DNA of 64,000 nt, from NCBI GenBank assembly GCA_964442325.1, contig CAYTYX010000001.1, forward strand, positions 57,485 to 121,484, in the 5' to 3' direction. This DNA is from an uncultured Candidatus Saccharibacteria bacterium (GTDB lineage Bacteria; Patescibacteriota; Saccharimonadia; Saccharimonadales; UBA10212). The position numbers and the translations under genes are program-made. The notes beneath the pieces were generated by a model, which ran no database searches, had not been told where the DNA came from, and worked only from the letters and a program-made list of their open reading frames with translations. Below are positions 8,112 to 33,560 of this stretch, in pieces; the first letter of the stretch is position 1, and each line of letters opens with the position of its first letter.

Positions 8112-8146
8112 GTGCCCCGGCAACCCGCCGGGGCACATCTCTTTTT
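8112..8146 (+). terminator. rho-independent terminator after the Gam-like gene
   Basis: GTGCCCCGG-caacccg-CCGGGGCAC stem-loop followed by a T-run (atctcttttt). Confidence 0.75.
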
Positions 8147-21231: not shown

Positions 21232-22131
21232 TTATGCTTGCCGCACCGGCGGTATAATATCCCACACCAGCTTGGCTGGTCGGGGACTGGTGGGTTGTAC
21301 AATTACCCCCACGTTTGGCACAGGTTCTATGAATGTATCGGTAGCAGTATCTGTAACAACCACCGGCGATTCAACTCGCCGCCGATTGTGCAGGTAAACT
21401 GCCAGCACCGAGATTTGATACATCGCCAGAATCGGCAGCGTAAAGAAAACCAGATTGGTAATATCGGTAGTTGGTGCCATTACCGCCGCGGCAATAAAGG
21501 CAAAGGCAATCACGTAACGCTCCCAGCCCAGAAGCCTTCGCGGGCTAAGCGGCTTGATGCGATTAATAAACGTGATAATTAGCGGCAACTGGAACAATAT
21601 GGCCGAACCAAGCAAATACATCGTGATAAAGCTCATATATTCCTGGATGGTCAATAGCGGTCTAATTTGGGTAGTCGTAAATTGATGCGATAGAAAATGC
21701 AGCAGCAAGGGCAGGCCGAGGTAGTAGCCAAAAACGCCACCGGCTATGGCAAAGACAAACGAGTAAAAACTATAGCGCAGTATTAGCGAACGCTTATGAT
21801 GGCCTAGCAGCGGCTCAAGGTAGCGCACAATCTGATAAACAATTACCGGGATGCTTAAAGCGATTCCAAAATACAGGCACACTTGGAACAAAAAATTGAG
21901 TCCACCGCCCGGCGTGGTGTAAATAAATTGCTGGCCATGCGACGGTTTGAGTAGCCAGGTTACAATTTGCTGCTGAATAAAATAGCCGGCCAGCGTGAAA
22001 CCAACTACCGAAACTGCGACATAAAACAATCGTCGGCGCAGTTCGTGCACGTGCTCTATAAACGGCCGTTTTAGATCAAGCCGCGTGTGAAGCTGGTGGT
22101 TGATCGTCTGATTTTGGTTTGTCGCTTCCAT
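21232..22131 (-). CDS. tatC: twin-arginine translocase subunit TatC
   Basis: 299 aa, 6 TM, with an N-terminal FIEHVHELRRRL motif. Its 5' end overlaps tatA by 56 nt if Met1 is used. Confidence 0.88.
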   Translation of the reverse strand: MEATNQNQTINHQLHTRLDLKRPFIEHVHELRRRLFYVAVSVVGFTLAGYFIQQQIVTWLLKPSHGQQFIYTTPGGGLNFLFQVCLYFGIALSIPVIVYQIVRYLEPLLGHHKRSLILRYSFYSFVFAIAGGVFGYYLGLPLLLHFLSHQFTTTQIRPLLTIQEYMSFITMYLLGSAILFQLPLIITFINRIKPLSPRRLLGWERYVIAFAFIAAAVMAPTTDITNLVFFTLPILAMYQISVLAVYLHNRRRVESPVVVTDTATDTFIEPVPNVGVIVQPTSPRPAKLVWDIIPPVRQA

Positions 22132-22303
22132 TTTTGGTGTTTTCGTTTACATCTCCACTTATACCCTTGCGCAGCTCGCGCATCGATTGGCCAATGCTCT
22201 TGCTAAGCTCAGGCAGTTTCTTACTACCAAATAGAAGTAGCAAGATAACTAAAATTATTATTAATTCCGGCGTGCCGATGTCTAGTAGACCAAATGTTGC
22301 CAT
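22076..22303 (-). CDS. tatA: twin-arginine translocase subunit TatA/E
   Basis: 75 aa with GTPELIIILVILLLLFGSKKLPELSKSIGQSMRELRKG, the canonical TatA TM helix plus amphipathic helix. Confidence 0.9.
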   Translation of the reverse strand: MATFGLLDIGTPELIIILVILLLLFGSKKLPELSKSIGQSMRELRKGISGDVNENTKNGSDKPKSDDQPPASHAA

Positions 22304-22396: not shown

Positions 22397-22723
22397 ATGC
22401 AGCAATCGATAGTAGCTGATGTTTACGGTGGTGGCAACTACGGCGCTGGCCAATATTCGGCCACGGGCGTAACTGGCTCTTCTAGCTCTACAACTTCTGG
22501 CTCCGGTAGCAGCACAACCGGCACTTCGAGCTCTCCAACCACCACTCCAAGCTCCCCGACTACCACTACTCTGCAGCCGGCCGCTGGTAGCCCAGCCCCA
22601 ACAACTGTCGCATCGGCTAGCCACGTATGGTTGTGGTCGGCGATTATTGTATTTGCAGTCGTGGTGGTAGTACTGCTGTGGCGGCGACTTCGTCGCCATA
22701 AACAACTTGACGTTTACTATTAA
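22397..22723 (+). CDS. Ser/Thr/Pro-rich C-tail-anchored small protein (first gene of the fibre locus)
   Basis: 108 aa with a low-complexity STP-rich stretch, a C-terminal TM helix (VWLWSAIIVFAVVVVVLLW) and a basic tail. GCAAGAGGA 9 nt before the ATG resembles the leader motif of the paralog genes. Confidence 0.55.
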   Translation: MQQSIVADVYGGGNYGAGQYSATGVTGSSSSTTSGSGSSTTGTSSSPTTTPSSPTTTTLQPAAGSPAPTTVASASHVWLWSAIIVFAVVVVVLLWRRLRRHKQLDVYY

Positions 22724-22733
22724 TCCTCATCTC

Positions 22734-22845
22734 AATCTCTTGTATAATAACCTCAAGCACTTAAAGTAGCGCAAGAGGGAGTTTTTAAAGACAAACAATG
22801 GCTAGACTGCCAATACCTGGTTCTGATGACGGCACCTGGGGAGAT
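22734..22845 (+). repeat. 112-nt block identical to 30863-30974 (promoter, 5' leader and first 16 codons)
   Basis: Base-by-base comparison by eye. Identity runs from aatctcttgtataat... through ...ggcacctggggagat. Confidence 0.85.
22741..22748 (+). promoter_or_regulatory. TG-TATAAT promoter -10 element of paralog 1
   Basis: cttgTGTATAATaacctcaagcac is conserved upstream of four paralogs, about 50 nt before the ATG. Confidence 0.5.
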
Positions 22846-25125
22846 ATCCTCAATTCTTTTTTAGAAGTTGAGCATAATGCTGACGGCAGCCAAAAGACTC
22901 TACCAATAACCAAAGGCGGCACTGGTGCGACTGATTCTACCGCCGCCCGAACCAATCTAGACGTTCCATCAACCTCCGACTTAGGCTCTAAAGCTGACGA
23001 CTCCACTGTTGTCCACCTCGCCGGCACCGAAACCATCACCGGCAATAAAGACTTCACTGGCTCCATAACCAAGAACAGCGCCAACCTCATCACTAGAATC
23101 CAGGATGCGACGGATGTCAACCTAGCCGGCGCGGCTGATGGTGATCCGGTCGTCTTCGACTCGGCATCGGGCGGGGCGAAGCACACATCCCCTTCATTTA
23201 TTAGTGCCTACAGGCTAACTAGTGACGGTACGACCGTAAGGGCGTACGACAAAACGGGTGCGCAGATTGCTTCTAACGCTGACGGCGGGGCTGTCTTGCA
23301 AGCAGTCTTCACGGCCATGCCCGCCGCAGGCGCACATATTGCATTCCGCAACGACGGCAATGTTTTCCCCTGGGCAACGACGCCACTCATCCCGAAGAAC
23401 ATAAGTAAGAAACTACTAATTCAAGGAAATGGTGCCACTGTTATACTGTCTGCTACCGCTCCGATCTTCCTTGATGTTAACCGCACTCTTCCCGGTGACA
23501 CGTTCCAGAACTTCGAAGTCTCCGATTTCATCATTAACCGCAACAACGTGAACCCGGCCCTTGGTGCTCCCGTCGTCCTCGGCGCATCCACCTCGTTCCG
23601 GATCAACTGGAACCACATCACCATTCGCCGGATCAAGACAATCAACGTCCCGACGAACGCAGGTACCGGTGCGATCAACCGAAACGTAGAAATCATCAGC
23701 TACCATACGGATGCTGGCGAAGCGCAGACCAACGTTACCGACATCCTTATCGAGGACTGCGATTTCGGGGGCGGAAACTACGGCGTTTTTGTCGGCGGGT
23801 TGGTTGTAAATGGTCGCTCCTGTGAAGTGCTTGTAGACCGGATCAAAGTCTACCGAGTCAAGCACGACACGCTTTCACTTAACAATACCAACACACTGCG
23901 TGGCGACGTACATGTGCATATCGGTGGTTTCGGCTTTGGCGGGAGCTGCGTCATCCGCGATTGTGAAGGCTTCAATACAGGCGACACCGGCTACGAGATT
24001 GACTCGATGATGTTTGCCATAGTTGATGGCTGTATCGCCTCTGATTACTGGTCAAAGGGCTTCCTTCTTCGCAACTTCCGGGCTGTACAAGATGTTAATT
24101 CTCAGCTTTACGTCGTTCGTGGTTGCAAAGCAGCAATCGTCAATTTGGTTGGAAATGAATGTCCACCGATTCAGTCGCAGAACGGTTTCTGCCTTCCAGT
24201 GCTGAATACAGACACTCCGTTTGGGCACATCGTTATTTCAGACTGTGAGTGGCATACCAAGCAATCTCAATTGGGGGACGGCACCGGAGATATGCTTGGC
24301 TTGGCAATACTGAATCTCTGGCAGATTCAGAGCATCACTGTACGTGATTTCACCATGGTTGCCGATTCACTTGCTGATACCTATGTAGGCGGGACGCTTA
24401 GGTTTGATACTGCGATCATGCTTTTTCCTGCAACTGATAATGCAAAAATCAGACTTGAAAACATCCAGGTAATCACGGCTGGAACGGTAACTACACAGCG
24501 ACGTTTGTGGTGGATTCGGGTTGGTTCAACTGGCAGCCACCCAGTTTCTTTTACCTGCGACGGCATTTGGTTCTCACCTGGTACTACGGGCGGTGGTAAT
24601 GGGCATCAACGGCTCGTCAGCCTCGGCGCGGCTCTCCCGGATGTTACAACTATGCGCGGGGTAATGCGTCGGGTTGGTGTCATCAACTACACCTCCGACG
24701 ACACACAGCCAGCCGGGATCGGAATAGAGGGCCAGAACCAGCTTGTCGTTGACGGGCAACTAGTTTTCGAAGACTGCGACTTCCGCAAGTTCCCAGGCAG
24801 TGCGGCTGATATTCAGTTCGAGGCGACCGGTACGTCGAATGCGGCATTCGTTAACGCCGTACGTATAAAAGGCCACATTTACCCATATAGCGCTACAGTC
24901 ATCACACCCAACGGCTCACCGTTCATCTGGCAGAACCTGCTCGGATATAGGGCGAAGCTACTGATCTTCGGCGGCACCGTCTCGGATATCCAGTGGTCGA
25001 ACGACGGTAGCACATACCGAGACACGGGATTCATAACCGGAGCAACTATCGATGTTGATCCTGGAGACTACGTGCAGGTCACCTACACCGGAGCGCCAAC
25101 GATGCGTGCCTTCCAGGTCAAATAG
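22798..25125 (+). CDS. tail-fibre/tailspike-like paralog 1 (constant N-module plus beta-helix-like body)
   Basis: 775 aa starting MARLPIPGSDDGTWGDILNSFLEVEHNADGSQK. Carries KGGTGATDSTAARTNL and KADDSTVVHLAGTETITGNKDFTG motifs, then repetitive Asn/Gly/Val-rich segments (ILIEDCDFGGGNYGVFVGG, CVIRDCEGFNTGDTGYEID) suggesting a parallel beta-helix. No signal peptide or TM helix. Confidence 0.75.
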   Translation: MARLPIPGSDDGTWGDILNSFLEVEHNADGSQKTLPITKGGTGATDSTAARTNLDVPSTSDLGSKADDSTVVHLAGTETITGNKDFTGSITKNSANLITRIQDATDVNLAGAADGDPVVFDSASGGAKHTSPSFISAYRLTSDGTTVRAYDKTGAQIASNADGGAVLQAVFTAMPAAGAHIAFRNDGNVFPWATTPLIPKNISKKLLIQGNGATVILSATAPIFLDVNRTLPGDTFQNFEVSDFIINRNNVNPALGAPVVLGASTSFRINWNHITIRRIKTINVPTNAGTGAINRNVEIISYHTDAGEAQTNVTDILIEDCDFGGGNYGVFVGGLVVNGRSCEVLVDRIKVYRVKHDTLSLNNTNTLRGDVHVHIGGFGFGGSCVIRDCEGFNTGDTGYEIDSMMFAIVDGCIASDYWSKGFLLRNFRAVQDVNSQLYVVRGCKAAIVNLVGNECPPIQSQNGFCLPVLNTDTPFGHIVISDCEWHTKQSQLGDGTGDMLGLAILNLWQIQSITVRDFTMVADSLADTYVGGTLRFDTAIMLFPATDNAKIRLENIQVITAGTVTTQRRLWWIRVGSTGSHPVSFTCDGIWFSPGTTGGGNGHQRLVSLGAALPDVTTMRGVMRRVGVINYTSDDTQPAGIGIEGQNQLVVDGQLVFEDCDFRKFPGSAADIQFEATGTSNAAFVNAVRIKGHIYPYSATVITPNGSPFIWQNLLGYRAKLLIFGGTVSDIQWSNDGSTYRDTGFITGATIDVDPGDYVQVTYTGAPTMRAFQVK

Positions 25126-25150: not shown

Positions 25151-25158
25151 TGTATAAT
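25151..25158 (+). promoter_or_regulatory. TG-TATAAT promoter -10 element of paralog 2
   Basis: Same ttcttgtataataacctcaagcac context as at 22741. Confidence 0.5.
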
Positions 25159-25207: not shown

Positions 25208-26803
25208 ATGGCTAGACTACCAATACCCGATTCCGATGATGGCACCTGGGGAGATATATTAAACTCCTTTTTGCTGGTTGGTCATAGCACCGATGGCTCA
25301 CTCAAGAACGCCGAAACTCCAGCAGGTGCACAAGCTAAAGCTGACGTCGCCCAAAGCGCCGCCGAAGCAGCCTCTATCCCAACCACCGCCCTAGACACCG
25401 ACACTACCCTAGCTGCCAATAGTGATAGCCGAGTTTCTTCGCAAAAGGCCGTAAAGTCATACGCGGATGCGCTTGGCGATTCGATTCCCTCCGTGGGGAA
25501 GACGTATCCGCTTGACGCAGATAATAATATGGGAATCGGCGACCAGCTTGCATTTCTGCAGATTGGTGCCACAGGCACCGGACAAACGCGCGTAACTTCT
25601 AGAAACATCGCATTAGGTTCGCTTGCAGGTGATTCATGGACAACCGATACCGAAGAGACCGCGGTTGGCTATCAGGCGATGCAGCATATGCAAAACGGTC
25701 GTGCCAATACCGCGCTCGGGCAGGGTGCGATGCAAAACGCGACTGGTGGCGATCGCAACGTTGCTGTTGGCACCGGGACGCTCAATTCACTCACCGGTGG
25801 TCTGTTCCCGGGCACGACCAACGGAACGTTCAACACCGCTGTAGGCGATGCCGCCTGCACGAGTCTGACAACTGGGTACTCCAACGTTTCGGTTGGTAGT
25901 GCGTCGATGTCGGCCGCTACGACCGGTTACCATAACACAGCCGTTGGCGAATCGGCCCTGACGGCACTGACGAACGGATTTGAGAACGTAGCGATTGGCA
26001 GCAGTGCTCTCAGCCATGCGACTGCGGACGCAGATCTTGTGGCAGTTGGTCCTTTCGCGATGCAGAACACGAACGGAGGTGCGGGAGGCGTCGCGGTCGG
26101 TTATTCAGCAATGAACGCCAACACCACTGGCTCAGACAACACCGCCGTTGGCTCTAACTCGCTGCACGCCAACCAAACTGGGACGCAGAACACCGCACTT
26201 GGTTCAAACGCACTAGCCTCATCCACTGCAGGTGGCAGCACAGCAGTCGGCTACAAGGCACTTAACTCGTCCGTAACTGGGCTGCACAACGTTGCCGTCG
26301 GTAACGCTGCGGCCAAGAACCTAACCACAAGCGATAACACGGCGATTGGCTTCAATGCGCAGAACGCAAACACTACGGGCGCGCAGACAGTCGCAATCGG
26401 CAGCAGTGCGCTTTTGAATCATAGTGGTGGTGATGGCAACGTCGGTGTTGGTTACCAGGCTGGAAACGCGATTACAGCGGGTGCATTCAATACAATTATG
26501 GGCCGCAATGCCGGCAACACCGGCTCGTCGAATGCATCCAATATGACGCTCCTGGGCTACACAACTGTAGGTGGCGGTAACTACGCAACCGCTGTTGGCA
26601 GTAGTGCTTCGGCTGGCGCCGCTGGCGCGGTTGCCATTGGCACCGACCATACCGGGGCTGGTGCCAGCGCCGGAACACAAGACTACTTCGTGCTCGGAAC
26701 CGCCAACCATAAACTGTTCATACCCGGTCTGCCGACAGCTAACCCGCACGTTGTCGGACAGTTGTGGTTGAACGCCGGCGTTCTGAATGTGAGTGCAGGC
26801 TAA
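25208..26803 (+). CDS. tail-fibre-like paralog 2 (constant N-module plus YadA-head/Hep_Hag-like repeat body)
   Basis: 531 aa with the same N-module and a DTDTTLAANSDSRVSSQKAVKSYAD motif. About 20 degenerate NTA(V/I)G..A(L/M)...T.G repeats follow. C-terminus is HVVGQLWLNAGVLNVSAG. Confidence 0.75.
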   Translation: MARLPIPDSDDGTWGDILNSFLLVGHSTDGSLKNAETPAGAQAKADVAQSAAEAASIPTTALDTDTTLAANSDSRVSSQKAVKSYADALGDSIPSVGKTYPLDADNNMGIGDQLAFLQIGATGTGQTRVTSRNIALGSLAGDSWTTDTEETAVGYQAMQHMQNGRANTALGQGAMQNATGGDRNVAVGTGTLNSLTGGLFPGTTNGTFNTAVGDAACTSLTTGYSNVSVGSASMSAATTGYHNTAVGESALTALTNGFENVAIGSSALSHATADADLVAVGPFAMQNTNGGAGGVAVGYSAMNANTTGSDNTAVGSNSLHANQTGTQNTALGSNALASSTAGGSTAVGYKALNSSVTGLHNVAVGNAAAKNLTTSDNTAIGFNAQNANTTGAQTVAIGSSALLNHSGGDGNVGVGYQAGNAITAGAFNTIMGRNAGNTGSSNASNMTLLGYTTVGGGNYATAVGSSASAGAAGAVAIGTDHTGAGASAGTQDYFVLGTANHKLFIPGLPTANPHVVGQLWLNAGVLNVSAG

Positions 26804-27042
26804 TGAAGCGCCTACGTCTTGTTAAGGTGATTGTCCAACCAGTGTTTGTGCTCGACGATGGCAATACCATCACCGAGGTCGACCATTCGCCGGTTGTAAT
26901 CCCAGCCGCCGACTGGCCAACTTATAGCGGCGAACGCTTCCCGCGCGAAGTCAAAGAATGGCAAGAGCGCCTAGATGCCGAGACAAAGCCCGGCCAACCC
27001 CAAGACCTCTCTCCGCTAAAGGACGAGCCCAATAAAAAGTAA
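26803..27042 (+). CDS. small fibre-associated protein, single-domain member (candidate assembly chaperone)
   Basis: 79 aa; its ATG overlaps the paralog-2 stop (TAATG). LVKVIVQPVFVLDDGNTITEVDHSPVVIPAADWPTYSGERFP aligns by eye with the PYKFIV...FP domains at 28844-29245. Confidence 0.55.
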   Translation: MKRLRLVKVIVQPVFVLDDGNTITEVDHSPVVIPAADWPTYSGERFPREVKEWQERLDAETKPGQPQDLSPLKDEPNKK

Positions 27043-27074: not shown

Positions 27075-27082
27075 TGTATAAT
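27075..27082 (+). promoter_or_regulatory. TG-TATAAT promoter -10 element of paralog 3
   Basis: The cctcaatctcttgtataat context is shared with 22727-22748. The leader diverges and contains a ccttaagcttttaagg hairpin. Confidence 0.5.
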
Positions 27083-27134: not shown

Positions 27135-28847
27135 ATGGCTAGACTACCAATACCTGGAGGAGATGACGGCACATGGGGAGATATATTAAACTCTTTCCTG
27201 GTTGTCTCTCATAATACTGACGGAACTCTAAAGAGCAATTCACTGAGCTTCCCGGGTGACGCCACGATTACCTCCGATTCGGATGCATCTGGTGCCGGCG
27301 ATATCATCCTTAAAACCGCTACCACCGAACGTCTCCGCTTTAATACAGCCGGGTCGATGCTGTGGAAGAACCAAGTTCTAGTCACCCGAACCTTTCAGTC
27401 GCTGCCAAGCGCAGATATCCCCGCCGGCACCAACGTCTTAGAAATCGACGAGTATGGAAACGTGCTTTTTGGCCCTAATGACTTCCTTTTTACGCGTCAA
27501 GGCAACATCTTCCAACTGGGATCCATCGCTGACTTTATGTATCACCAGGAGACGCGGCGTATTTATACTCGTTCTGCCGCCTTCGTCGAGTTCGGCGATC
27601 CGCCGGATGTAATTATCGCTCGTGCTGGACCCGACAATATATATCCGGGCGTTGCTGGCGGCCTAGCTGGTATCCCTAGCGGCACGACCTTAGGTGTAAT
27701 CCGCTGGCAGGGCTCGTTTACACCGCAAGGTGGTACGGTCGGTGTGACGCAAGGCGGTGCGTTCCATAACGACAGCGCCCAGATATACGCCAAGGCCGCC
27801 GAGGACAATAACTTCAATGGCGGCACGTCTTATAGTCAGGGTGGTGAGCTGCATTTCGCAACAACCCCAAATGGCACAGCCACGCCCGTCGATGCGCTGG
27901 TCATCTCGAGCGACCAAACGGTGACCGCGAAGAAGGCTCTCACCGTCGCGGGACTGACTGGGGCGACCGCAACGTCCCGGTTGACTGGCGCGACGACGTC
28001 CGGTCCTCCGACAACTGGAACCTTCGCGGTCGGCGACACCGTGATCGACCGGTCGGGGTCGCTGTGGATTTGCGTAGGCGCTGGTACACCCGGCACCTGG
28101 AAACAAGTCGGGGGCACGTTCCCTGGCGGAGCGCCTGGACTCAAAAATGCCAAGTATGTGCCAATCTTTGGCTCTAACCTTGGTACTGGTGACCACGATC
28201 TCTACACTGTTCCGGTAGGCCGCCAGGCTCTCGTCGATCGTAACCTGGTCGCTTACAACATCGCCGGGTCGGGCGGAAACATCGTCTGCTACTCAGAGAT
28301 CAAGGTCGGTGGTGTTTACTACCGCGTCAGTCCGAACGTCACCATCGCGGATGGTGCCGGTGGGTCACCCGGAATGGCAGTGCATATGGTTCTCGCCGCA
28401 GGAGAAAAGTTTGCTGCCAACACCGCGACCACGGCCGGACTCAATGTGCGAGGCGGCGTCTGGGAATTCGACGCTGACGACACGAGGGTTTTCACGGCAC
28501 GCATCCTCGGGCTCGCGTCTGGAGACAATCTCCTCTACACCGTCCCTGCTGGCAAGTCGGTCGTGTTCCTTCAGGGCGCCGAGTTCGTCCCCTCGATGAC
28601 TGCCCAGATTCAGATCGTGAACAACACGGGCGGCTCGCTCAACTACTACGCGAACGCAGTGCCCTCAGGCGGCACAGTCGGCCCAACCAACCGCTGCTTT
28701 TCAGCAGTCGCGGTCGGCGACAAAGCGCTCGGCCAGATCTTCGGCGCACAACCGCTATCGCCGGGCGATTTCATCAGTGTCAACGCATCGGGTCCCGACG
28801 CGGGCGGCCACCACATCGCATGGGTTACCGGATATCAACTTCCATGA
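27135..28847 (+). CDS. tail-fibre-like paralog 3 (constant N-module, shared shaft, unique distal domain)
   Basis: 570 aa. The first ~245 aa are roughly nine-in-ten identical to paralog 4 by eye. Contains FAVGDTVIDRSGSLWICVGAGTPGTWKQVG, then a unique C-terminal ~230 aa. Confidence 0.75.
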   Translation: MARLPIPGGDDGTWGDILNSFLVVSHNTDGTLKSNSLSFPGDATITSDSDASGAGDIILKTATTERLRFNTAGSMLWKNQVLVTRTFQSLPSADIPAGTNVLEIDEYGNVLFGPNDFLFTRQGNIFQLGSIADFMYHQETRRIYTRSAAFVEFGDPPDVIIARAGPDNIYPGVAGGLAGIPSGTTLGVIRWQGSFTPQGGTVGVTQGGAFHNDSAQIYAKAAEDNNFNGGTSYSQGGELHFATTPNGTATPVDALVISSDQTVTAKKALTVAGLTGATATSRLTGATTSGPPTTGTFAVGDTVIDRSGSLWICVGAGTPGTWKQVGGTFPGGAPGLKNAKYVPIFGSNLGTGDHDLYTVPVGRQALVDRNLVAYNIAGSGGNIVCYSEIKVGGVYYRVSPNVTIADGAGGSPGMAVHMVLAAGEKFAANTATTAGLNVRGGVWEFDADDTRVFTARILGLASGDNLLYTVPAGKSVVFLQGAEFVPSMTAQIQIVNNTGGSLNYYANAVPSGGTVGPTNRCFSAVAVGDKALGQIFGAQPLSPGDFISVNASGPDAGGHHIAWVTGYQLP

Positions 28848-29245
28848 TAGAAAAAGAAGAAATTATGCCAAATACCCTATTTCCCTACAAATTCATCGTT
28901 CAAGCTGTTGTCCAGCAACTATCAAAAGATGGCCAAGTTCTGGGCGAAGTATCTTCCGAGCCGGTCCAGCTTTTTAGCACAGATCAACTGGCGGCGTGGG
29001 CCTCCAACTTCCCAGATTCCTTGGCTGATCTAAAAGAGGCTCAGACTACCGGTACAAAACTAGCACCGTATAAATTTATTGTTGAGGCAGTCGTTCAAGA
29101 AAAGGGTAAGGGTGGAAAAGTCATTGCTGAGCACAACTCGCAGCCAGCCACTCTTTTTGGATGTGATAACTTGGCTGCTTGGGCAAAAGAATTCCCAGAC
29201 AGACTAAGTAAAGCCGTAGCTCAAGAAAAATCTAAAGCTAAATAA
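28844..29245 (+). CDS. small fibre-associated protein, tandem two-domain member (candidate assembly chaperone)
   Basis: 133 aa; its ATG overlaps the paralog-3 stop (ATGA). Two repeats: PYKFIVQAVVQQLSKDGQVLGEVSSEPVQLFSTDQLAAWASNFPD and PYKFIVEAVVQEKGKGGKVIAEHNSQPATLFGCDNLAAWAKEFPD. Its stop lies 2 nt before the paralog-4 ATG. Confidence 0.6.
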   Translation: MIEKEEIMPNTLFPYKFIVQAVVQQLSKDGQVLGEVSSEPVQLFSTDQLAAWASNFPDSLADLKEAQTTGTKLAPYKFIVEAVVQEKGKGGKVIAEHNSQPATLFGCDNLAAWAKEFPDRLSKAVAQEKSKAK

Positions 29246-29247
29246 CA

Positions 29248-30807
29248 ATGGCCCGTCTACCAATACCTGGCTCTGATGACGGCACTTGGGGAGATATCCT
29301 TAACTCCTTCCTGGTTGTTGCCCATAATACTGACGGAACTCTAAAGGGCAATTCGCTGACCTCTCCAGGTGATATTACGATTAGCTCCGACTCGGACGCA
29401 TCCGGCGCTGGCGATATCGTCCTTAAAACTGGCACCACCGAACGCCTTCGTTTTAATACGGATGGGTCAATGCTGTGGAAAAACCAAGTTCTAGTCACGC
29501 GAACCTTTCAGTCGAACCCGCGCGCGGATATCCCCGCCGGCACCAACGTCTTCGAAATCGACGAATATGGGAACGTCCTCTTTGGCCCTAATGACTTCCT
29601 TTTTACGCGTCAAGGCAACATCTTCCAGATGGGATCCATCGCCGACTTTATATATCACCAGGAGACCAGGCGCATCTACACACGCTCTGCCGCTTTCGTC
29701 GAGTTCGGCGATCCGCCGGATGTCATCATCGCTCGTGCTGGGCCGGATAATTCTTATCCCGGTGTCGCTGGCGGACCCGCCGGCATCCCCGGCGGCACGA
29801 ACTTAGGCGTGATCCGTTGGCAGGGCTCGTTTACACCGCAGGGTGGTACGCCAGACGTAACTCTTGGTGGCGCATTCTATAAAGACAGCGCGCAGATATA
29901 TGCCAAGGCCGCCGAGGACAATAAGTTCAACGGTGGCACGTCATACAGCCAAGGCGGTGAGCTTTATTTTGCAACTACTCGGAGCGGCACTTCTCAGTCT
30001 GTGGCCGGTTTAGCACTTTTAAACGATCAAACCTTGCAGATCCTTGGCCCGAGAGTTGTCTATAGCGGTGGAGATTTTGAGTTCTCGGGCACCCAACCAC
30101 AACTCCGCTTCGACGCTGTCACAGACTCGAGTCGCGCGATTGTGCTCTTCAAACTCGCCGGCGAGGCGCAGTCCCTCTTCGTGATGCGCATGAGCGGCGC
30201 TTTGGAATGGGGACCTGGTGGCAATACACCCTCAGACACATTCCTTGAAAGGGGAGCGGCCGGCCAGATGAAGGTCACCGGCGATCTGAACGTTACAGGC
30301 AATATTGGTGGTAGCCAGTACCGGCGTATCTCTGGCCTACCATCGACCTCGAACAACACCAACGCCGTGGTCAGCGCAGCAGATGTATATGGGATGCAAA
30401 CAAACGGCAACTTGAATACCCAGAGTGCTTCCGGTAACGTGCCAGCAATCTTCTATCTTAACCCAACCGACTTTGCGATTACTGGCAAAACGACAAAGAT
30501 GCGGCTAAGAATCGGGACACTCGTCAACGACACTGCTCCGGCCAACACAATGACCTGGGGACTTTACCCGGTGGGTAACCAAACAGGAGGTAGTGGTATC
30601 TTAAACCCCACCCTTGGTACTGTGGTGTCAGGGTCAACGGTCGCGCAGACGACCCCGGCAGCCAACGCCAAAATTACTCCTGTTTCGAGCAGTGACTTCA
30701 CTATGCCCTCGGCTGGCTTTTATATGATTGGGGCGGCGTCGAGCGGTGCGATGGCTGCCAACTCGAAGGTTGCAACGACCATCAGCCTCGAAGTCAGAAA
30801 TGTGTAG
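29248..30807 (+). CDS. tail-fibre-like paralog 4 (constant N-module, shared shaft, unique distal domain)
   Basis: 519 aa starting MARLPIPGSDDGTWGDILNSFLVVAHNTDGTLK. It has no promoter box of its own and is coupled to the preceding small gene. The C-terminal ~270 aa are unrelated to paralog 3. Confidence 0.75.
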   Translation: MARLPIPGSDDGTWGDILNSFLVVAHNTDGTLKGNSLTSPGDITISSDSDASGAGDIVLKTGTTERLRFNTDGSMLWKNQVLVTRTFQSNPRADIPAGTNVFEIDEYGNVLFGPNDFLFTRQGNIFQMGSIADFIYHQETRRIYTRSAAFVEFGDPPDVIIARAGPDNSYPGVAGGPAGIPGGTNLGVIRWQGSFTPQGGTPDVTLGGAFYKDSAQIYAKAAEDNKFNGGTSYSQGGELYFATTRSGTSQSVAGLALLNDQTLQILGPRVVYSGGDFEFSGTQPQLRFDAVTDSSRAIVLFKLAGEAQSLFVMRMSGALEWGPGGNTPSDTFLERGAAGQMKVTGDLNVTGNIGGSQYRRISGLPSTSNNTNAVVSAADVYGMQTNGNLNTQSASGNVPAIFYLNPTDFAITGKTTKMRLRIGTLVNDTAPANTMTWGLYPVGNQTGGSGILNPTLGTVVSGSTVAQTTPAANAKITPVSSSDFTMPSAGFYMIGAASSGAMAANSKVATTISLEVRNV

Positions 30808-30862
30808 GCGGGTCGCTTACTCCAGCGCTCGAATCCATCCTGTTCCTATTATCCTTCCCCTT

Positions 30863-30974
30863 AATCTCTTGTATAATAACCTCAAGCACTTAAAGTAGCG
30901 CAAGAGGGAGTTTTTAAAGACAAACAATGGCTAGACTGCCAATACCTGGTTCTGATGACGGCACCTGGGGAGAT
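30863..30974 (+). repeat. 112-nt block identical to 22734-22845
   Basis: See 22734-22845. Confidence 0.85.
30870..30877 (+). promoter_or_regulatory. TG-TATAAT promoter -10 element of paralog 5
   Basis: Lies within the 112-nt identical block. Confidence 0.5.
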
Positions 30975-32075
30975 GTATTAAACGCTTTTCTTAAAGTCGA
31001 ACATCACTCTGACGGCACTCAAAAAACCTTGTCTGTAAGTAAGGGTGGCACTGGTGCGACCAACTCTACTACCGCCAGAACCAATTTAGGGGCTATCAAT
31101 AAAGTAGCTGATGCGGCGGATGTCGCCATTACTTCGCCAGCCGACGGCGAGCCGCTTGCCTGGGATGAAGCAACCTCGAAGTTCACAAGTGGCCAGCCGA
31201 TCAAGCTGCGGAACTCTCTCGCCGTTGTCGCGGACCTGTCGCCCACTGGCGACATTTCGCCTGGGACGATCACTTTCCGGCATGACGCCTACGGCAATGC
31301 TTTCCTCGGCCCGAACGTCTACCTCCCGGCACCCGATAACTCCCTGAGCGCCGCCATCGTCATCGCGGACTTCTTCTACTCGCAACGGTTTCGACGTCTG
31401 TTCACGAGGTCAATCTGCGTCAGAGATCTCGGCGATCCCCCTGACCTCATAATCGGGCGCGCTGGTCCGGATGGCGGTTGGCCGGACAACGGAGGTCTAG
31501 GCCTAGCCGGTGTCATGAGCAACGACTCGCTCGGCAGTATCCGCTGGCAGGGATCTTTCCAGCCCAGCGGTGTAGGAATAGACACCGTTTCTGGCTTCCA
31601 GGGCGATAGCGCCACAATCTACGCGCGCGCTTCTGAGGACAACAGGCGCACTTCCGATAGCGTCTATCACCAGGGTGGTGAGCTGCATATCGCCACGACC
31701 CCGAACGGGACGTCTTCTCCGGTCGATCGACTCATCATCCAGAACGATGGAGTGTTCGATTTCCGGGGAAATAATATCAAGGTCGGATCGGCCGACTTCT
31801 CCGGAGCAGCTGAAGCCCATACGACGCTGCGGGTCGACGGCATACTAACCGCGGCGAGCGAGGTCGATGCGAACAGCGACATTAGGTTCGGAGAAGGATC
31901 CAACATCATCGTCGGCACGACAAGCGGCACAAGGATCGGCACATCAGCGACCCAGAAGCTCGGCTTCTTCGGCAAGTCGGCCATCGTGCAGCCGCTTCTT
32001 GCAACTGGGGCGGGCCACACCGTCGACGACGTCATCACAGTCCTCCAGAACCTCGGACTAGTGAGGCAGACATGA
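30927..32075 (+). CDS. tail-fibre-like paralog 5 (mosaic: paralog-1-like head, paralog-3/4-like shaft, short distal end)
   Basis: 382 aa. Residues 1-55 resemble paralog 1 (KVEHHSDGTQKTLSVSKGGTGATNSTTARTNLG). Residues ~100-275 are homologous to the paralog 3/4 shaft (GDPPDLIIGRAGPD...IRWQGSF...YHQGGELHIATTPNGT). C-terminus is QKLGFFGKSAIVQP...VLQNLGLVRQT. Confidence 0.75.
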   Translation: MARLPIPGSDDGTWGDVLNAFLKVEHHSDGTQKTLSVSKGGTGATNSTTARTNLGAINKVADAADVAITSPADGEPLAWDEATSKFTSGQPIKLRNSLAVVADLSPTGDISPGTITFRHDAYGNAFLGPNVYLPAPDNSLSAAIVIADFFYSQRFRRLFTRSICVRDLGDPPDLIIGRAGPDGGWPDNGGLGLAGVMSNDSLGSIRWQGSFQPSGVGIDTVSGFQGDSATIYARASEDNRRTSDSVYHQGGELHIATTPNGTSSPVDRLIIQNDGVFDFRGNNIKVGSADFSGAAEAHTTLRVDGILTAASEVDANSDIRFGEGSNIIVGTTSGTRIGTSATQKLGFFGKSAIVQPLLATGAGHTVDDVITVLQNLGLVRQT

Positions 32076-32194
32076 CCCTCCATCCCTACAAATTTATCGC
32101 CACGAACAATCGTAGGTGGCGTGACTGGCTCAAAGATTTGGATCAGACTCAACGGATCATGGAAGAGCGCGGCGGTCGCATGAAAAGCCTATGA
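32072..32194 (+). CDS. truncated or divergent member of the small fibre-associated family
   Basis: 40 aa; its ATG overlaps the paralog-5 stop (ATGA). It begins MTLHPYKFIA, matching the PYKFIV motif, then diverges. Below the ORF-track cutoff. Confidence 0.4.
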   Translation: MTLHPYKFIATNNRRWRDWLKDLDQTQRIMEERGGRMKSL

Positions 32195-32195
32195 G

Positions 32196-33560
32196 TTAAA
32201 ACAGTGACCAGATGGCGGCTAGGCCGGCTAGGGCCATCACGCCGGTAACACCCCAGCCCAAGGCTGTGGTTGAGCGCCGGTTGGTCCAGTCGCCCATAAT
32301 GTGCTTATTACTGCTAATCAAAACAATCAGAACCAAAACTATTGGCGCAACAATGCCATTGGCGATAGCGGCATAAATCAGCGCTTTAATTGGGTCTAGG
32401 CCAATAAAGTTTAGGCCTAAACCAACCAACATCGACACAATAATAGTGCCGTAAAAAGCGTGGGCCTGTTTGAACTTACGGTACAAACCTTCGCGTTGCT
32501 TAAAGCTTTCGGCCAAGGCATAAGAACTTGAACCGGCCAGTACCGGAATAGCCAGCAGGCCGGTGCCAATAATTCCAACCGCAAATAATAGGTAGGTCGC
32601 ATTACCGGCAAAAGGTCTAAGCGCTTCGGCGGCCTGAGCGGCCGATTTTATGTTAGTTATGCCGTGGGTAAACAGCAGAGCGCCGCAAGCGGCGATAATA
32701 AAGAACATCACCAGGTTAGACAAAAACATCCCACTCCAAACGTCAATTCGCATACTGCGAATATCTTTGTGCTTAGTAGCCTGGCGCAGCGGGATATTGG
32801 TTTTGCCTTGCAAAATTTCTTCTTCGACTTCTTGGGAAGTTTGCCAAAAAAACAGATACGGTGAGATAGTTGTACCTAAGATGCCACAAATCAGCAACAA
32901 CTGGTCTTTGCTGAAAGTAAGGTGAGGGATAACCGCATGCTTGGCTACATCACTCCAATTCAAGTGTGCCAGTAACGCCGAGGCGACATAGGCAAAAAGT
33001 ACCATCGCTAACCATTTAAGATATCTGGCGTAGCGGGCATAGGGAGTAAAAATTTGCAGCAGTGCGGTCAGCAAGCTAAAGCCAATTACCAGCATCGAAA
33101 AATCAAGACTAGGCCGCAGTAGCTGAACGCCTTTAGCCATGGCTCCTAAATCCGCGCCGATATTAAAGGCATTAGCCGCAAAAAGTAGCGTAGTACAAAG
33201 GTATAAAACTTTTTTAGAAAAATGGGTGCGGATTGTGCCGGCTAGCCCTCGGCCAGTCACTAGGCCGATGCGGGCGCACATTTCTTGCACAATCGCCATT
33301 AGCGGAAAAGTAAAAGCGGCCAGCCATAGCAAACCAAAGCCATACTGTGCGCCGGTTTGGGAGTAGGTGGCAATGCCGGACGGGTCGTCGTCGGATGCCC
33401 CGGTGGTTAGGCCGGGCCCAAGCATATGCCAGTAGTCACGGCCTTCTTTGACTACTTTTGACGGTGGTAAGTTTTGGCCAAGTTGTTCGCCAATGGCAAC
33501 TCCCTCGTCAATAACTTCACCCGGTACCTCGGCGATTCTACCCAGTAAATCCTTAGACAT
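32196..33560 (-). CDS. mntH: NRAMP-family divalent metal (Mn/Fe) transporter
   Basis: 454 aa, ~11 TM, with a GASDDDPSGIATYSQTGAQYGF motif equivalent to the NRAMP DPGN signature. Confidence 0.85.
   Translation of the reverse strand: MSKDLLGRIAEVPGEVIDEGVAIGEQLGQNLPPSKVVKEGRDYWHMLGPGLTTGASDDDPSGIATYSQTGAQYGFGLLWLAAFTFPLMAIVQEMCARIGLVTGRGLAGTIRTHFSKKVLYLCTTLLFAANAFNIGADLGAMAKGVQLLRPSLDFSMLVIGFSLLTALLQIFTPYARYARYLKWLAMVLFAYVASALLAHLNWSDVAKHAVIPHLTFSKDQLLLICGILGTTISPYLFFWQTSQEVEEEILQGKTNIPLRQATKHKDIRSMRIDVWSGMFLSNLVMFFIIAACGALLFTHGITNIKSAAQAAEALRPFAGNATYLLFAVGIIGTGLLAIPVLAGSSSYALAESFKQREGLYRKFKQAHAFYGTIIVSMLVGLGLNFIGLDPIKALIYAAIANGIVAPIVLVLIVLISSNKHIMGDWTNRRSTTALGWGVTGVMALAGLAAIWSLF

Follow-up and report, generated by a model that had tools for sequence, protein, structure and literature searches.

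A tandem array of fibre-like genes in a Saccharibacteria genome

The window analyzed here is a 64-kb stretch (64,000 nt) of contig CAYTYX010000001.1 from an uncultured Candidatus Saccharibacteria bacterium. It contains a tandem array of five forward-strand open reading frames (ORFs), g1 to g5, of which g1 is the first and g5 the last, and every one of which starts with MARLPIPGSDDGTWGDILNSFL (Table 1); the initial annotation of this DNA had counted four paralogs. The array is flanked by a divergent tatA-tatC pair and an Nramp transporter gene, and the surrounding genes are of the housekeeping type, coding for RNase Y, TsaE, TsaD, a DsbA-like protein and an AsnRS-type synthetase. All five predicted proteins have a common N-terminal module beginning MARLPIPGSDDGTWGDILN... 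(the N-module), which resembles phage tail fibres. A 112-nt sequence is present in two identical copies, one at the 5' end of g1 and the other at the 5' end of g5, and it is this repeat and its likely origin that we describe first. Contigs and loci of other genomes are designated by L numbers.

An exact 112-nt repeat at the 5' ends of g1 and g5

An exact repeat search of the window shows that positions 22734-22845 and 30863-30974 are identical base for base, as had been claimed, and that the 112-nt match is maximal, the flanking bases on both sides being different in the two copies. Of exact repeats of 30 nt or more, the window has just one besides this, a 47-nt sequence common to g3 and g4 (27468/29581). 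The contents described for the block, a promoter-like box, a leader of about 50 nt and the first 16 codons, are also correct: in the g1 copy it starts 6 nt 5' of TTGTATAAT (22740-22748, with TATAAT at 22743-22748), the ATG follows at 22798 after a 49-nt spacer, and codon 16 is the last in the block.

The block lies within older homology that is present on both sides of it (22714-22960 and 30843-31089). This homologous segment is 247 nt long and contains 41 mismatches, none of them inside the block, and the flanks are 70% identical. The 112-nt identity is beyond chance; when the mismatches were placed at random 10^6 times, no clean run reached 112 nt, the longest being 83 nt, and an analytic estimate puts the probability at ~2e-7. 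The coding regions had been said to have diverged completely beyond the repeat, which overstates the case: g1 and g5 are still ~70% identical for another 115 nt (codons 17-54), and a further common motif reaches to approximately residue 88 of g5. Conversely, the corresponding cassettes of g2 and g3, previously called slightly diverged, do differ from the block, but are only 81% (g2) and 75% (g3) identical to it, with insertions and deletions.

A close strain in which g1 and g5 differ

Sample ERZ27245386 contains a near-identical strain that is ~0.2-0.3% different from the window outside of a short patch at g5, and three of its contigs cover parts of the array (L090, L145 and L006; Table 1). 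The patch, at 30879-31005, begins immediately 3' of the -10 box, continues to codon 27 of g5 and is 15% different between the two strains. Fourteen of the differences in the L006 allele of g5 are inside the 112-nt block, and five are beyond it (30975-31005). The g1 and g5 genes of this strain therefore do not have a common leader, and an apparently unconverted g5 allele (L006) is found in a close relative in which the putative donor locus at g1 is unchanged (L145). Such a cluster of differences is the signature of a recombination tract, and shows that strains of the species are polymorphic for the 112-nt identity. Four of the seven differences that L006 has outside of the main patch are also clustered, in a 22-nt stretch (30714-30735) at the g4 3' end, and this may be a second small exchange tract. 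Mutagenesis of the diversity-generating retroelement type was considered for the differences at 30975-31005 and rejected, as the changes are not adenine-specific and there is no reverse transcriptase nearby.

Promoter boxes and conserved leaders

The sequence TTGTATAAT occurs four times in the window against 0.43 expected, and each occurrence is 49-52 nt 5' of the ATG of g1, g2, g3 or g5. The box is also conserved in two sister-species loci (L008 and L011), and similar boxes precede two tRNA genes. There is no -35 hexamer 16-18 nt upstream of the boxes, the best candidate by eye being TTAATC with three of six matches, and because there is no good -35 the boxes were not flagged in a consensus promoter scan. 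We nonetheless infer that each box is the promoter of the gene that follows, and for g1 transcription is predicted to begin at ~22755-22757.

Three motifs are conserved in the box-bearing paralogs and in the two sister species: AACCTCAAGC, which directly follows the box, GAGGGAG, and TAAAGAYAAACA, which immediately precedes the ATG. GAGGGAG and TAAAGAYAAACA are at fixed distances in all three species; TAAAGACAAACA is a leader motif noted alongside GAGGGAG. The leader of g3 differs at a single position in ~75 nt from that of its ortholog in L008 and L012, though the genes are ~83% identical between the species. The cassette of promoter and leader is thus clearly under purifying selection.

The GGGAG within the leader had been described as too distant from the ATG to act as a normal Shine-Dalgarno (SD) sequence, and at 16-19 nt this is so. 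An upstream start codon that would make it a normal SD was considered and rejected, since the reading frame is closed by a TAA 12 nt upstream of the ATG and the homologs all start at the same methionine. Among the 31 other genes in the window, only 5 have an SD core 3-12 nt upstream, and 13 have a -10-like box whose 3' end is 4-16 nt upstream of the start codon; each of these features occurs at ~4.6% of random positions, which provides the background for these non-fibre genes. With so many close boxes and so few SD cores, this genome seems to depend mostly on leaderless or short-leader mRNAs. The array genes are distinctive in having a long (~42-49 nt), unstructured and A-rich leader, and one might guess that its conserved motifs act as a standby or enhancer site, or as a binding site for a protein.

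It had also been proposed that the leader might itself be a regulatory RNA element, but this found no support in structural comparisons. The g1, g2 and g3 leaders fold no better than shuffled sequences (z-scores of +0.45 to +1.4), and when eight leaders from three species were folded to a consensus, the energy was -1.47 kcal/mol and no base pair showed a compensatory change. Searches of Rfam, using the gathering threshold for the whole window and E<=1 for 22600-22900, identified nothing except two tRNAs.

Probable gene conversion and alternative explanations

We consider it very probable from the sequence comparisons that the 112-nt identity results from recent, short-tract interlocus gene conversion between the 5' ends of tandem paralogs, a mechanism that is already known and is here documented at the strain level by a relative lacking the identity. 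The block would be the footprint of one recent, short, non-reciprocal homologous recombination event between two of the five paralogs. The common 5' homology would have let the recombination machinery, presumably of the RecA type, copy the promoter, leader and first codons of one gene over those of another, such that g1 sequence now stands in front of g5. The likely direction is from g1 as the donor to g5 as the recipient, because the two strains have identical g1 leaders and because the block is closer to the sister-species g1 ortholog (84% identity over the block, against 80% for the L006 allele; in the variable part of the leader, 61% against 46%).

Some of the data weigh against this account. 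The differences at 30975-31005 are outside of the g1/g5 identity, and neither g5 allele matches g1 there; because of these five differences, a single g1-to-g5 event after the strains separated is insufficient. A search of g1-g4 and of the sister-species copies gave no donor for the L006 patch, and contig L145 could derive from a window-type strain that co-occurs in the same sample. Furthermore, purifying selection on the leader and promoter clearly adds to the similarity, though not to the perfect identity. Because the strain differences run ~30 nt past the block, to position 31005, there would have been either at least two exchange events at the 5' end of g5, or an older identity that was then lost in the other strain through one 127-nt import. 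This latter explanation, in which the identity is ancestral to both strains and the only recent event is an import in the other strain, for example by natural transformation, is a genuine possibility, if an unlikely one. A single tract from 30879 to 31005 would cover all 19 of the clustered differences, and natural competence is documented for Saccharibacteria (PMC10633639); nevertheless, the missing donor is a difficulty here also, and an earlier conversion between g1 and g5 would still be needed. The timing would be changed and the mechanism would be the same, as both timings involve homologous exchange at the same 5' cassette.

The initial annotation offered recent gene conversion or strong selection as the cause of the identity; the L006 allele together with the unchanged g1 supports the former, whereas selection by itself fails because functional copies vary. 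That purifying selection alone, with no recombination, has kept the promoters, leaders and N-terminal codons of g1 and g5 identical is very unlikely, even though the box and three leader motifs are conserved in three species, the g3 leader is nearly invariant between species, and the N-terminal peptide is ~80% identical across hundreds of family members. In their first 16 codons g2, g3, g4 and the L006 allele each differ from g1 at 3-6 sites, mostly synonymous, and the variable part of the leader is only 49-70% identical among the box-bearing copies, suggesting that selection does not demand the exact sequence. A strain diverged by a fraction of one percent moreover carries its 14 differences at g5 inside the very segment concerned. 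Since the copies vary freely and selection would not generate a sharp step from 100% to 70% identity, we attribute the identity to conversion.

An assembly or binning artefact, in which one copy had been threaded into the other locus, is scarcely credible. Short-read contigs of several samples do stop in or near the repeated 5' cassettes or the g3-g4 spacer (L145 at 22804, L146 at 22719, and k=141 contigs at ~29059-29090), and fragmentation or mis-joining of this locus is therefore likely in draft assemblies. In the MEGAHIT k=141 assembly ENA ERZ27245400, however, g1 and g5 are on separate contigs and each copy of the block is joined to unique flanks on both sides, the block (112 nt) being shorter than the final k-mer (141), and a separately assembled JGI contig (3300028556) is 100% identical across 30826-32971 and has the same g5 copy. 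We conclude that the identity is real. It is also quite improbable that the block is held identical as a functional cis-regulatory RNA, or by programmed switching between an expression site and cassettes. The length of the leader is unusual where close boxes are so common, and the spacing of GAGGGAG and TAAAGAYAAACA is conserved across species, but the leader has no stable fold, covariation or Rfam family. With five full-length genes, four of them with their own TTGTATAAT box, there are no silent cassettes, and precomputed Pfam lists for the genes up to 10 kb on each side include no dedicated recombinase or reverse transcriptase; the repeats found are direct only, with no inverted repeat annotated in that interval.

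Probable conversion and gene turnover in related genomes

We compared the array with 77 loci of other genomes that were found with the N-module profile. Most paralog pairs in these loci are 70-95% identical over the first 50 nt and have no long exact run. In another Saccharibacteria genome (L043), three tandem members (at 8144, 10001 and 11801) have 107-122 nt of exact identity from the ATG. Contig L007 (ENA ERZ27245619; 2159 nt) is a mosaic in which ~560 nt match the g4 upstream region and 5' part at 100%, the next ~250 nt match g3 at 100%, with the switch at the 47-nt repeat, and the remainder is a diverged g3-like 3' half. Set against the many pairs without a long exact run, L043 and L007 suggest that conversion is recurrent but sporadic. 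The first and last 49 nt of L007 are identical, which suggests a tandem or collapsed unit. Orphan 5' fragments of the N-module, 18-44 codons in length, are present downstream of full-length genes in L043 (11801), L050 (11903) and L036 (8439).

The number of array genes at the TatAC-Nramp locus also varies, with two in one sister species (L008, L012 and L092), three in L011 and five in the window. The two-gene species has one g1-like and one g3-like gene, plus a small ORF. In L011 the g1 ortholog (64% amino acid identity) is the last gene, and follows the small ORF through a promoterless junction of the g4 type; similarity to the upstream side of g4 and similarity to the body of g1 overlap in the first ~33 codons, within the N-module. 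The same 5' homology is the likely handle by which whole genes have been gained, lost and re-ordered among sister species. The proposal that the repeats are substrates for reshaping the gene repertoire is accordingly supported at the species level, with two, three or five genes and a re-ordered g1 ortholog, whereas no junction between 22.8 kb and 30.9 kb was found: a metagenome scan with a 23-nt sequence spanning the leader/ATG junction recovered four contigs, none of which joins the g1 flank to the g5 body. The window and the ERZ27245386 strain have the same gene order as far as the contigs extend.

Two further variations concern g1. The sister-species g1-like gene is intact in L091 (9509-11713; 734 aa) and called as two ORFs (140 and 570 aa) in L092 (10001-12205), from another sample, although these 5-kb regions differ at only two positions; the interrupted copy is either a strain-level pseudogene or a sequencing error. 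In addition, g1 has a 41-aa insertion (22960-23085, residues ~55-95) relative to the L011 ortholog and, judging by length, to the 734-aa copies in L008 and L012. The insertion includes a stretch that weakly matches the N-terminal domain of lactococcal phage BppL.

Organization of the array and its fibre-like products

The coordinates of the array genes, the repeats and the related contigs are shown in Table 1. At each of the g2, g3 and g5 stop codons there is an overlapping small ORF, and these three ORFs have in common a motif of ~50 aa (PYKFIV...); neither these ORFs nor the 108-aa ORF upstream of g1 has a significant Pfam or PHROG match, and an exact sequence look-up of the 108-aa ORF gave no record.

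Table 1. Features of the array and its surroundings, with contigs of the related strain and small proteins at other loci.
Feature	Coordinates	Strand	Description
tatC (21232-22131) and tatA (22076-22303)	21232-22303	-	Divergent from array; Pfam TatC, TatA_B_E
108-aa ORF	22397-22723	+	N-terminal YGGGNYG, Ser/Thr-rich linker, C-terminal membrane helix with basic tail
g1/g5 nucleotide homology, g1 side	22714-22960	+	Full extent; block flanks ~70% identical
Repeat copy 1	22734-22845	+	-10 box, leader and codons 1-16 of g1; likely donor copy
TATAAT -10-like box, g1	22743-22748	+	Predicted
g1	22798-25125	+	775 aa; N-module and large C-terminal body; PHROG tail-fibre matches, weak BppL_N match
TATAAT -10-like box, g2	25153-25158	+	Predicted
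g2	25208-26803	+	531 aa; N-module in first 33 aa only, then repeat-rich body; PHROG tail spike protein, E 6e-49
79-aa ORF	26803-27042	+	Overlaps g2 stop codon
TATAAT -10-like box, g3	27077-27082	+	Predicted
g3	27135-28847	+	570 aa; ortholog in L008/L012
47-nt exact repeat	27468-27514 (g3); 29581-29627 (g4)	+	g4/g3 switch point of mosaic contig L007
133-aa ORF	28844-29245	+	Overlaps g3 stop codon; PYKFIV-type motif twice; conserved in L008, L011, L091, L092
g4	29248-30807	+	519 aa; no promoter box; begins 3 nt after 133-aa ORF
g1/g5 nucleotide homology, g5 side	30843-31089	+	Full extent
Repeat copy 2	30863-30974	+	-10 box, leader and codons 1-16 of g5; likely converted copy
TATAAT -10-like box, g5	30872-30877	+	Predicted
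Strain-difference patch	30879-31005	+	19 of 26 differences in 127 nt; putative recombination tract at g5 5' end
g5	30927-32075	+	382 aa
40-aa ORF	32072-32194	+	Overlaps g5 stop codon; start of same PYKFIV-type motif
Contig L090 (ERZ27245386)	g1 3' end, g2, g3 5' end		4 differences in 2283 nt relative to window
Contig L145 (ERZ27245386)	tatC to 7 nt into g1		Covers the g1 promoter and leader completely; identical to window over 1192 nt
Contig L006 (ERZ27245386)	g4 3' end, g5, Nramp		26 differing positions in 2.3 kb, 19 within 30879-31005
Small Tat-signal proteins	L018 9785; L026 8850; L033 9588; L036 9658; L043 7952; L044 1348; L050 9801; L063 3718; L077 5191		Positions in the respective loci

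The N-module has no Pfam or NCBIfam family, and the five proteins gave almost nothing in searches of either. A longer form of ~55 aa, including the sequence GGTGAT..ARTNL (KGGTGAT..ARTNL), is present in g1 and g5. With a 56-aa query, the matches at E<=0.001 numbered 4237 cluster representatives; of the best 150, most align at residues 1-56 of the matched protein and the others match the second half as internal repeats. The matched proteins range from fewer than 100 to ~1400 aa, with C-termini that include rhamnogalacturonase/pectate-lyase-like beta-helices, GDSL esterases and a polysaccharide deacetylase; DUF5907 repeats and interior BppL_N motifs are also present in these proteins. Homologs for which a source is named are mostly from Candidatus Saccharibacteria, Saccharimonadales or Patescibacteria.

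Several lines of comparison connect these proteins with tail fibres. The N-module profile matches the PDB chains 7z47_D (E 7.7e-9), 6cl5_A (the R1 pyocin fibre), 8vbx_R and 8hqz_d, one of the chains being named L-shaped tail fiber assembly, with the matches lying in the second half of the module, at the motif GGTGA..AR.NLG, and the array proteins match PHROG tail fibre and tail spike families. The label 'fibre-like' is justified by these similarities. Sequence searches of the PDB with g1 and g2 gave no match, and an AlphaFold2 monomer model of g5 (mean predicted local distance difference test score, pLDDT, of 55.7) is too poor for a fold to be assigned. Viral contigs mostly share the second half of the module only, and a few carry a distant full-length relative at the N-terminus of a protein (L093, 48%). 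There are no phage structural genes within 10 kb of the array.

Linkage of N-module genes to the Tat system

Genes of the twin-arginine translocation (Tat) system are common near N-module genes, with TatC encoded in 29 (~38%) and TatA in 30 of the 77 loci. In ~22 loci the distance between TatC and the N-module gene is 55-720 nt, with the two genes either co-directional or divergent; as a rough estimate, made with no computed control, ~2% linkage would be expected by chance in ~1 Mb genomes. The linked taxa include Saccharimonadales, Parcubacteria, Levyibacteriota, Peribacteria and a Limnocylindrales metagenome-assembled genome (MAG). A complete Tat system was described as unique among the Saccharibacteria genomes analyzed at the time (Starr et al., PMC6031116). 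A search of a library of papers found no description of the N-module, its arrays or the Tat linkage.

The N-module is itself without a Tat signal (S/T-R-R-x-F-L-K plus a hydrophobic stretch), MARLPIPGSDDGTWGD having one arginine and an acidic, non-hydrophobic continuation. Many loci have a small gene located between those for TatC and the N-module protein. Its product (58-77 aa) combines a signal of the form S/T/N-R-[RK]-x-F-L, a stretch of hydrophobic residues and a Gly/Tyr/Ser-rich C-terminal tail of the GYGSSSYGG type. All nine such proteins listed in Table 1 match NCBIfam NF038009, a 'twin-arginine translocation system-associated protein', over its full length with E-values of 1e-6 to 1e-17, below the curated cut-off. 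In the 108-aa ORF of the window and its counterparts in L059 (9701) and L070 (9640) the Tyr/Gly motif is N-terminal and the membrane helix C-terminal, and the TatA proteins of L020, L023 and L029 themselves have GYG..GYG at their C-terminus.

That the N-module serves in Tat-linked export or docking is offered strictly as a hypothesis. The broader idea, that the module has a dual role as a recombination handle in DNA and as a docking or export tag of the protein for a dedicated Tat system, is tentative and rather doubtful. At the DNA level it would provide a handle with which the epibiont could alter its set of genes for tail-fibre-like surface proteins by conversion, gain, loss and re-ordering, and so retune which host surfaces are bound or digested. 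At the protein level, the signal-less proteins would fold in the cytoplasm and exit via TatAC as hitch-hikers on the small membrane protein with a Tat-type signal and Gly/Tyr-rich tail whose gene lies between tatC and the fibre gene in many Patescibacteria, or would dock to it later. If this is correct, the recurrent placement of these genes beside tatAC would point to a route to the surface for signal-less folded proteins in minimal cells.

N-module genes are also present in a few genomes outside of the Patescibacteria: L088 (Acidithrix ferrooxidans), L078 (an Actinomycetes MAG), L035 and L047. In L088 and L078, tatA and tatC are 2.7-3.7 kb from the N-module gene. Actinobacteria are known hosts of cultivated Saccharibacteria, and these genes may possibly reflect transfer or bin contamination.

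Significance and comparison with known systems

The 112-nt repeat is most simply seen as the outcome of a textbook process, observed at strain resolution in an uncultured lineage, and it is chiefly of value as a marker of a fast-evolving, tail-fibre-like locus in Saccharibacteria. These bacteria live attached to other bacteria, and the molecules with which they recognize their hosts are largely unknown. If the array products are fibres that bind hosts or degrade host walls, recombination at a common 5' module would be a simple route to a change in host range. The gene family and its association with tatAC are more interesting than the repeat itself.

Interlocus gene conversion and concerted evolution are known for bacterial paralogs such as the Neisseria opa genes and tufA/tufB. 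The g1/g5 repeat is similar in being a short perfect tract within older, diverged homology, with a donor in the same genome and polymorphism among close strains, but differs in that the tract covers only the promoter, leader and 16 codons and in that homogenization is sporadic. The array also resembles modular phage tail fibres and receptor-binding proteins, in which a conserved N-terminal module is joined to unrelated C-termini, and its small overlapping ORFs are in the positions where fibre chaperones would sit in tail-fibre loci; unlike phage fibre genes, it lies amid the housekeeping genes of a cellular genome, and the full N-module has only distant phage relatives. A third parallel is with the cassette arrays of antigenic variation and polymorphic toxins, such as pilE/pilS, vlsE and the orphan modules of contact-dependent inhibition (CDI)/Rhs systems. 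Here too the genes are in tandem with conserved 5' and variable 3' parts, the 5' homology would serve as a recombination handle, and orphan 5' fragments are found in some genomes. In contrast to those systems, the array has no single expression site, all of its genes are complete and most have their own promoter box, no dedicated recombinase is annotated within 10 kb, and the small downstream ORFs are similar to each other rather than polymorphic.

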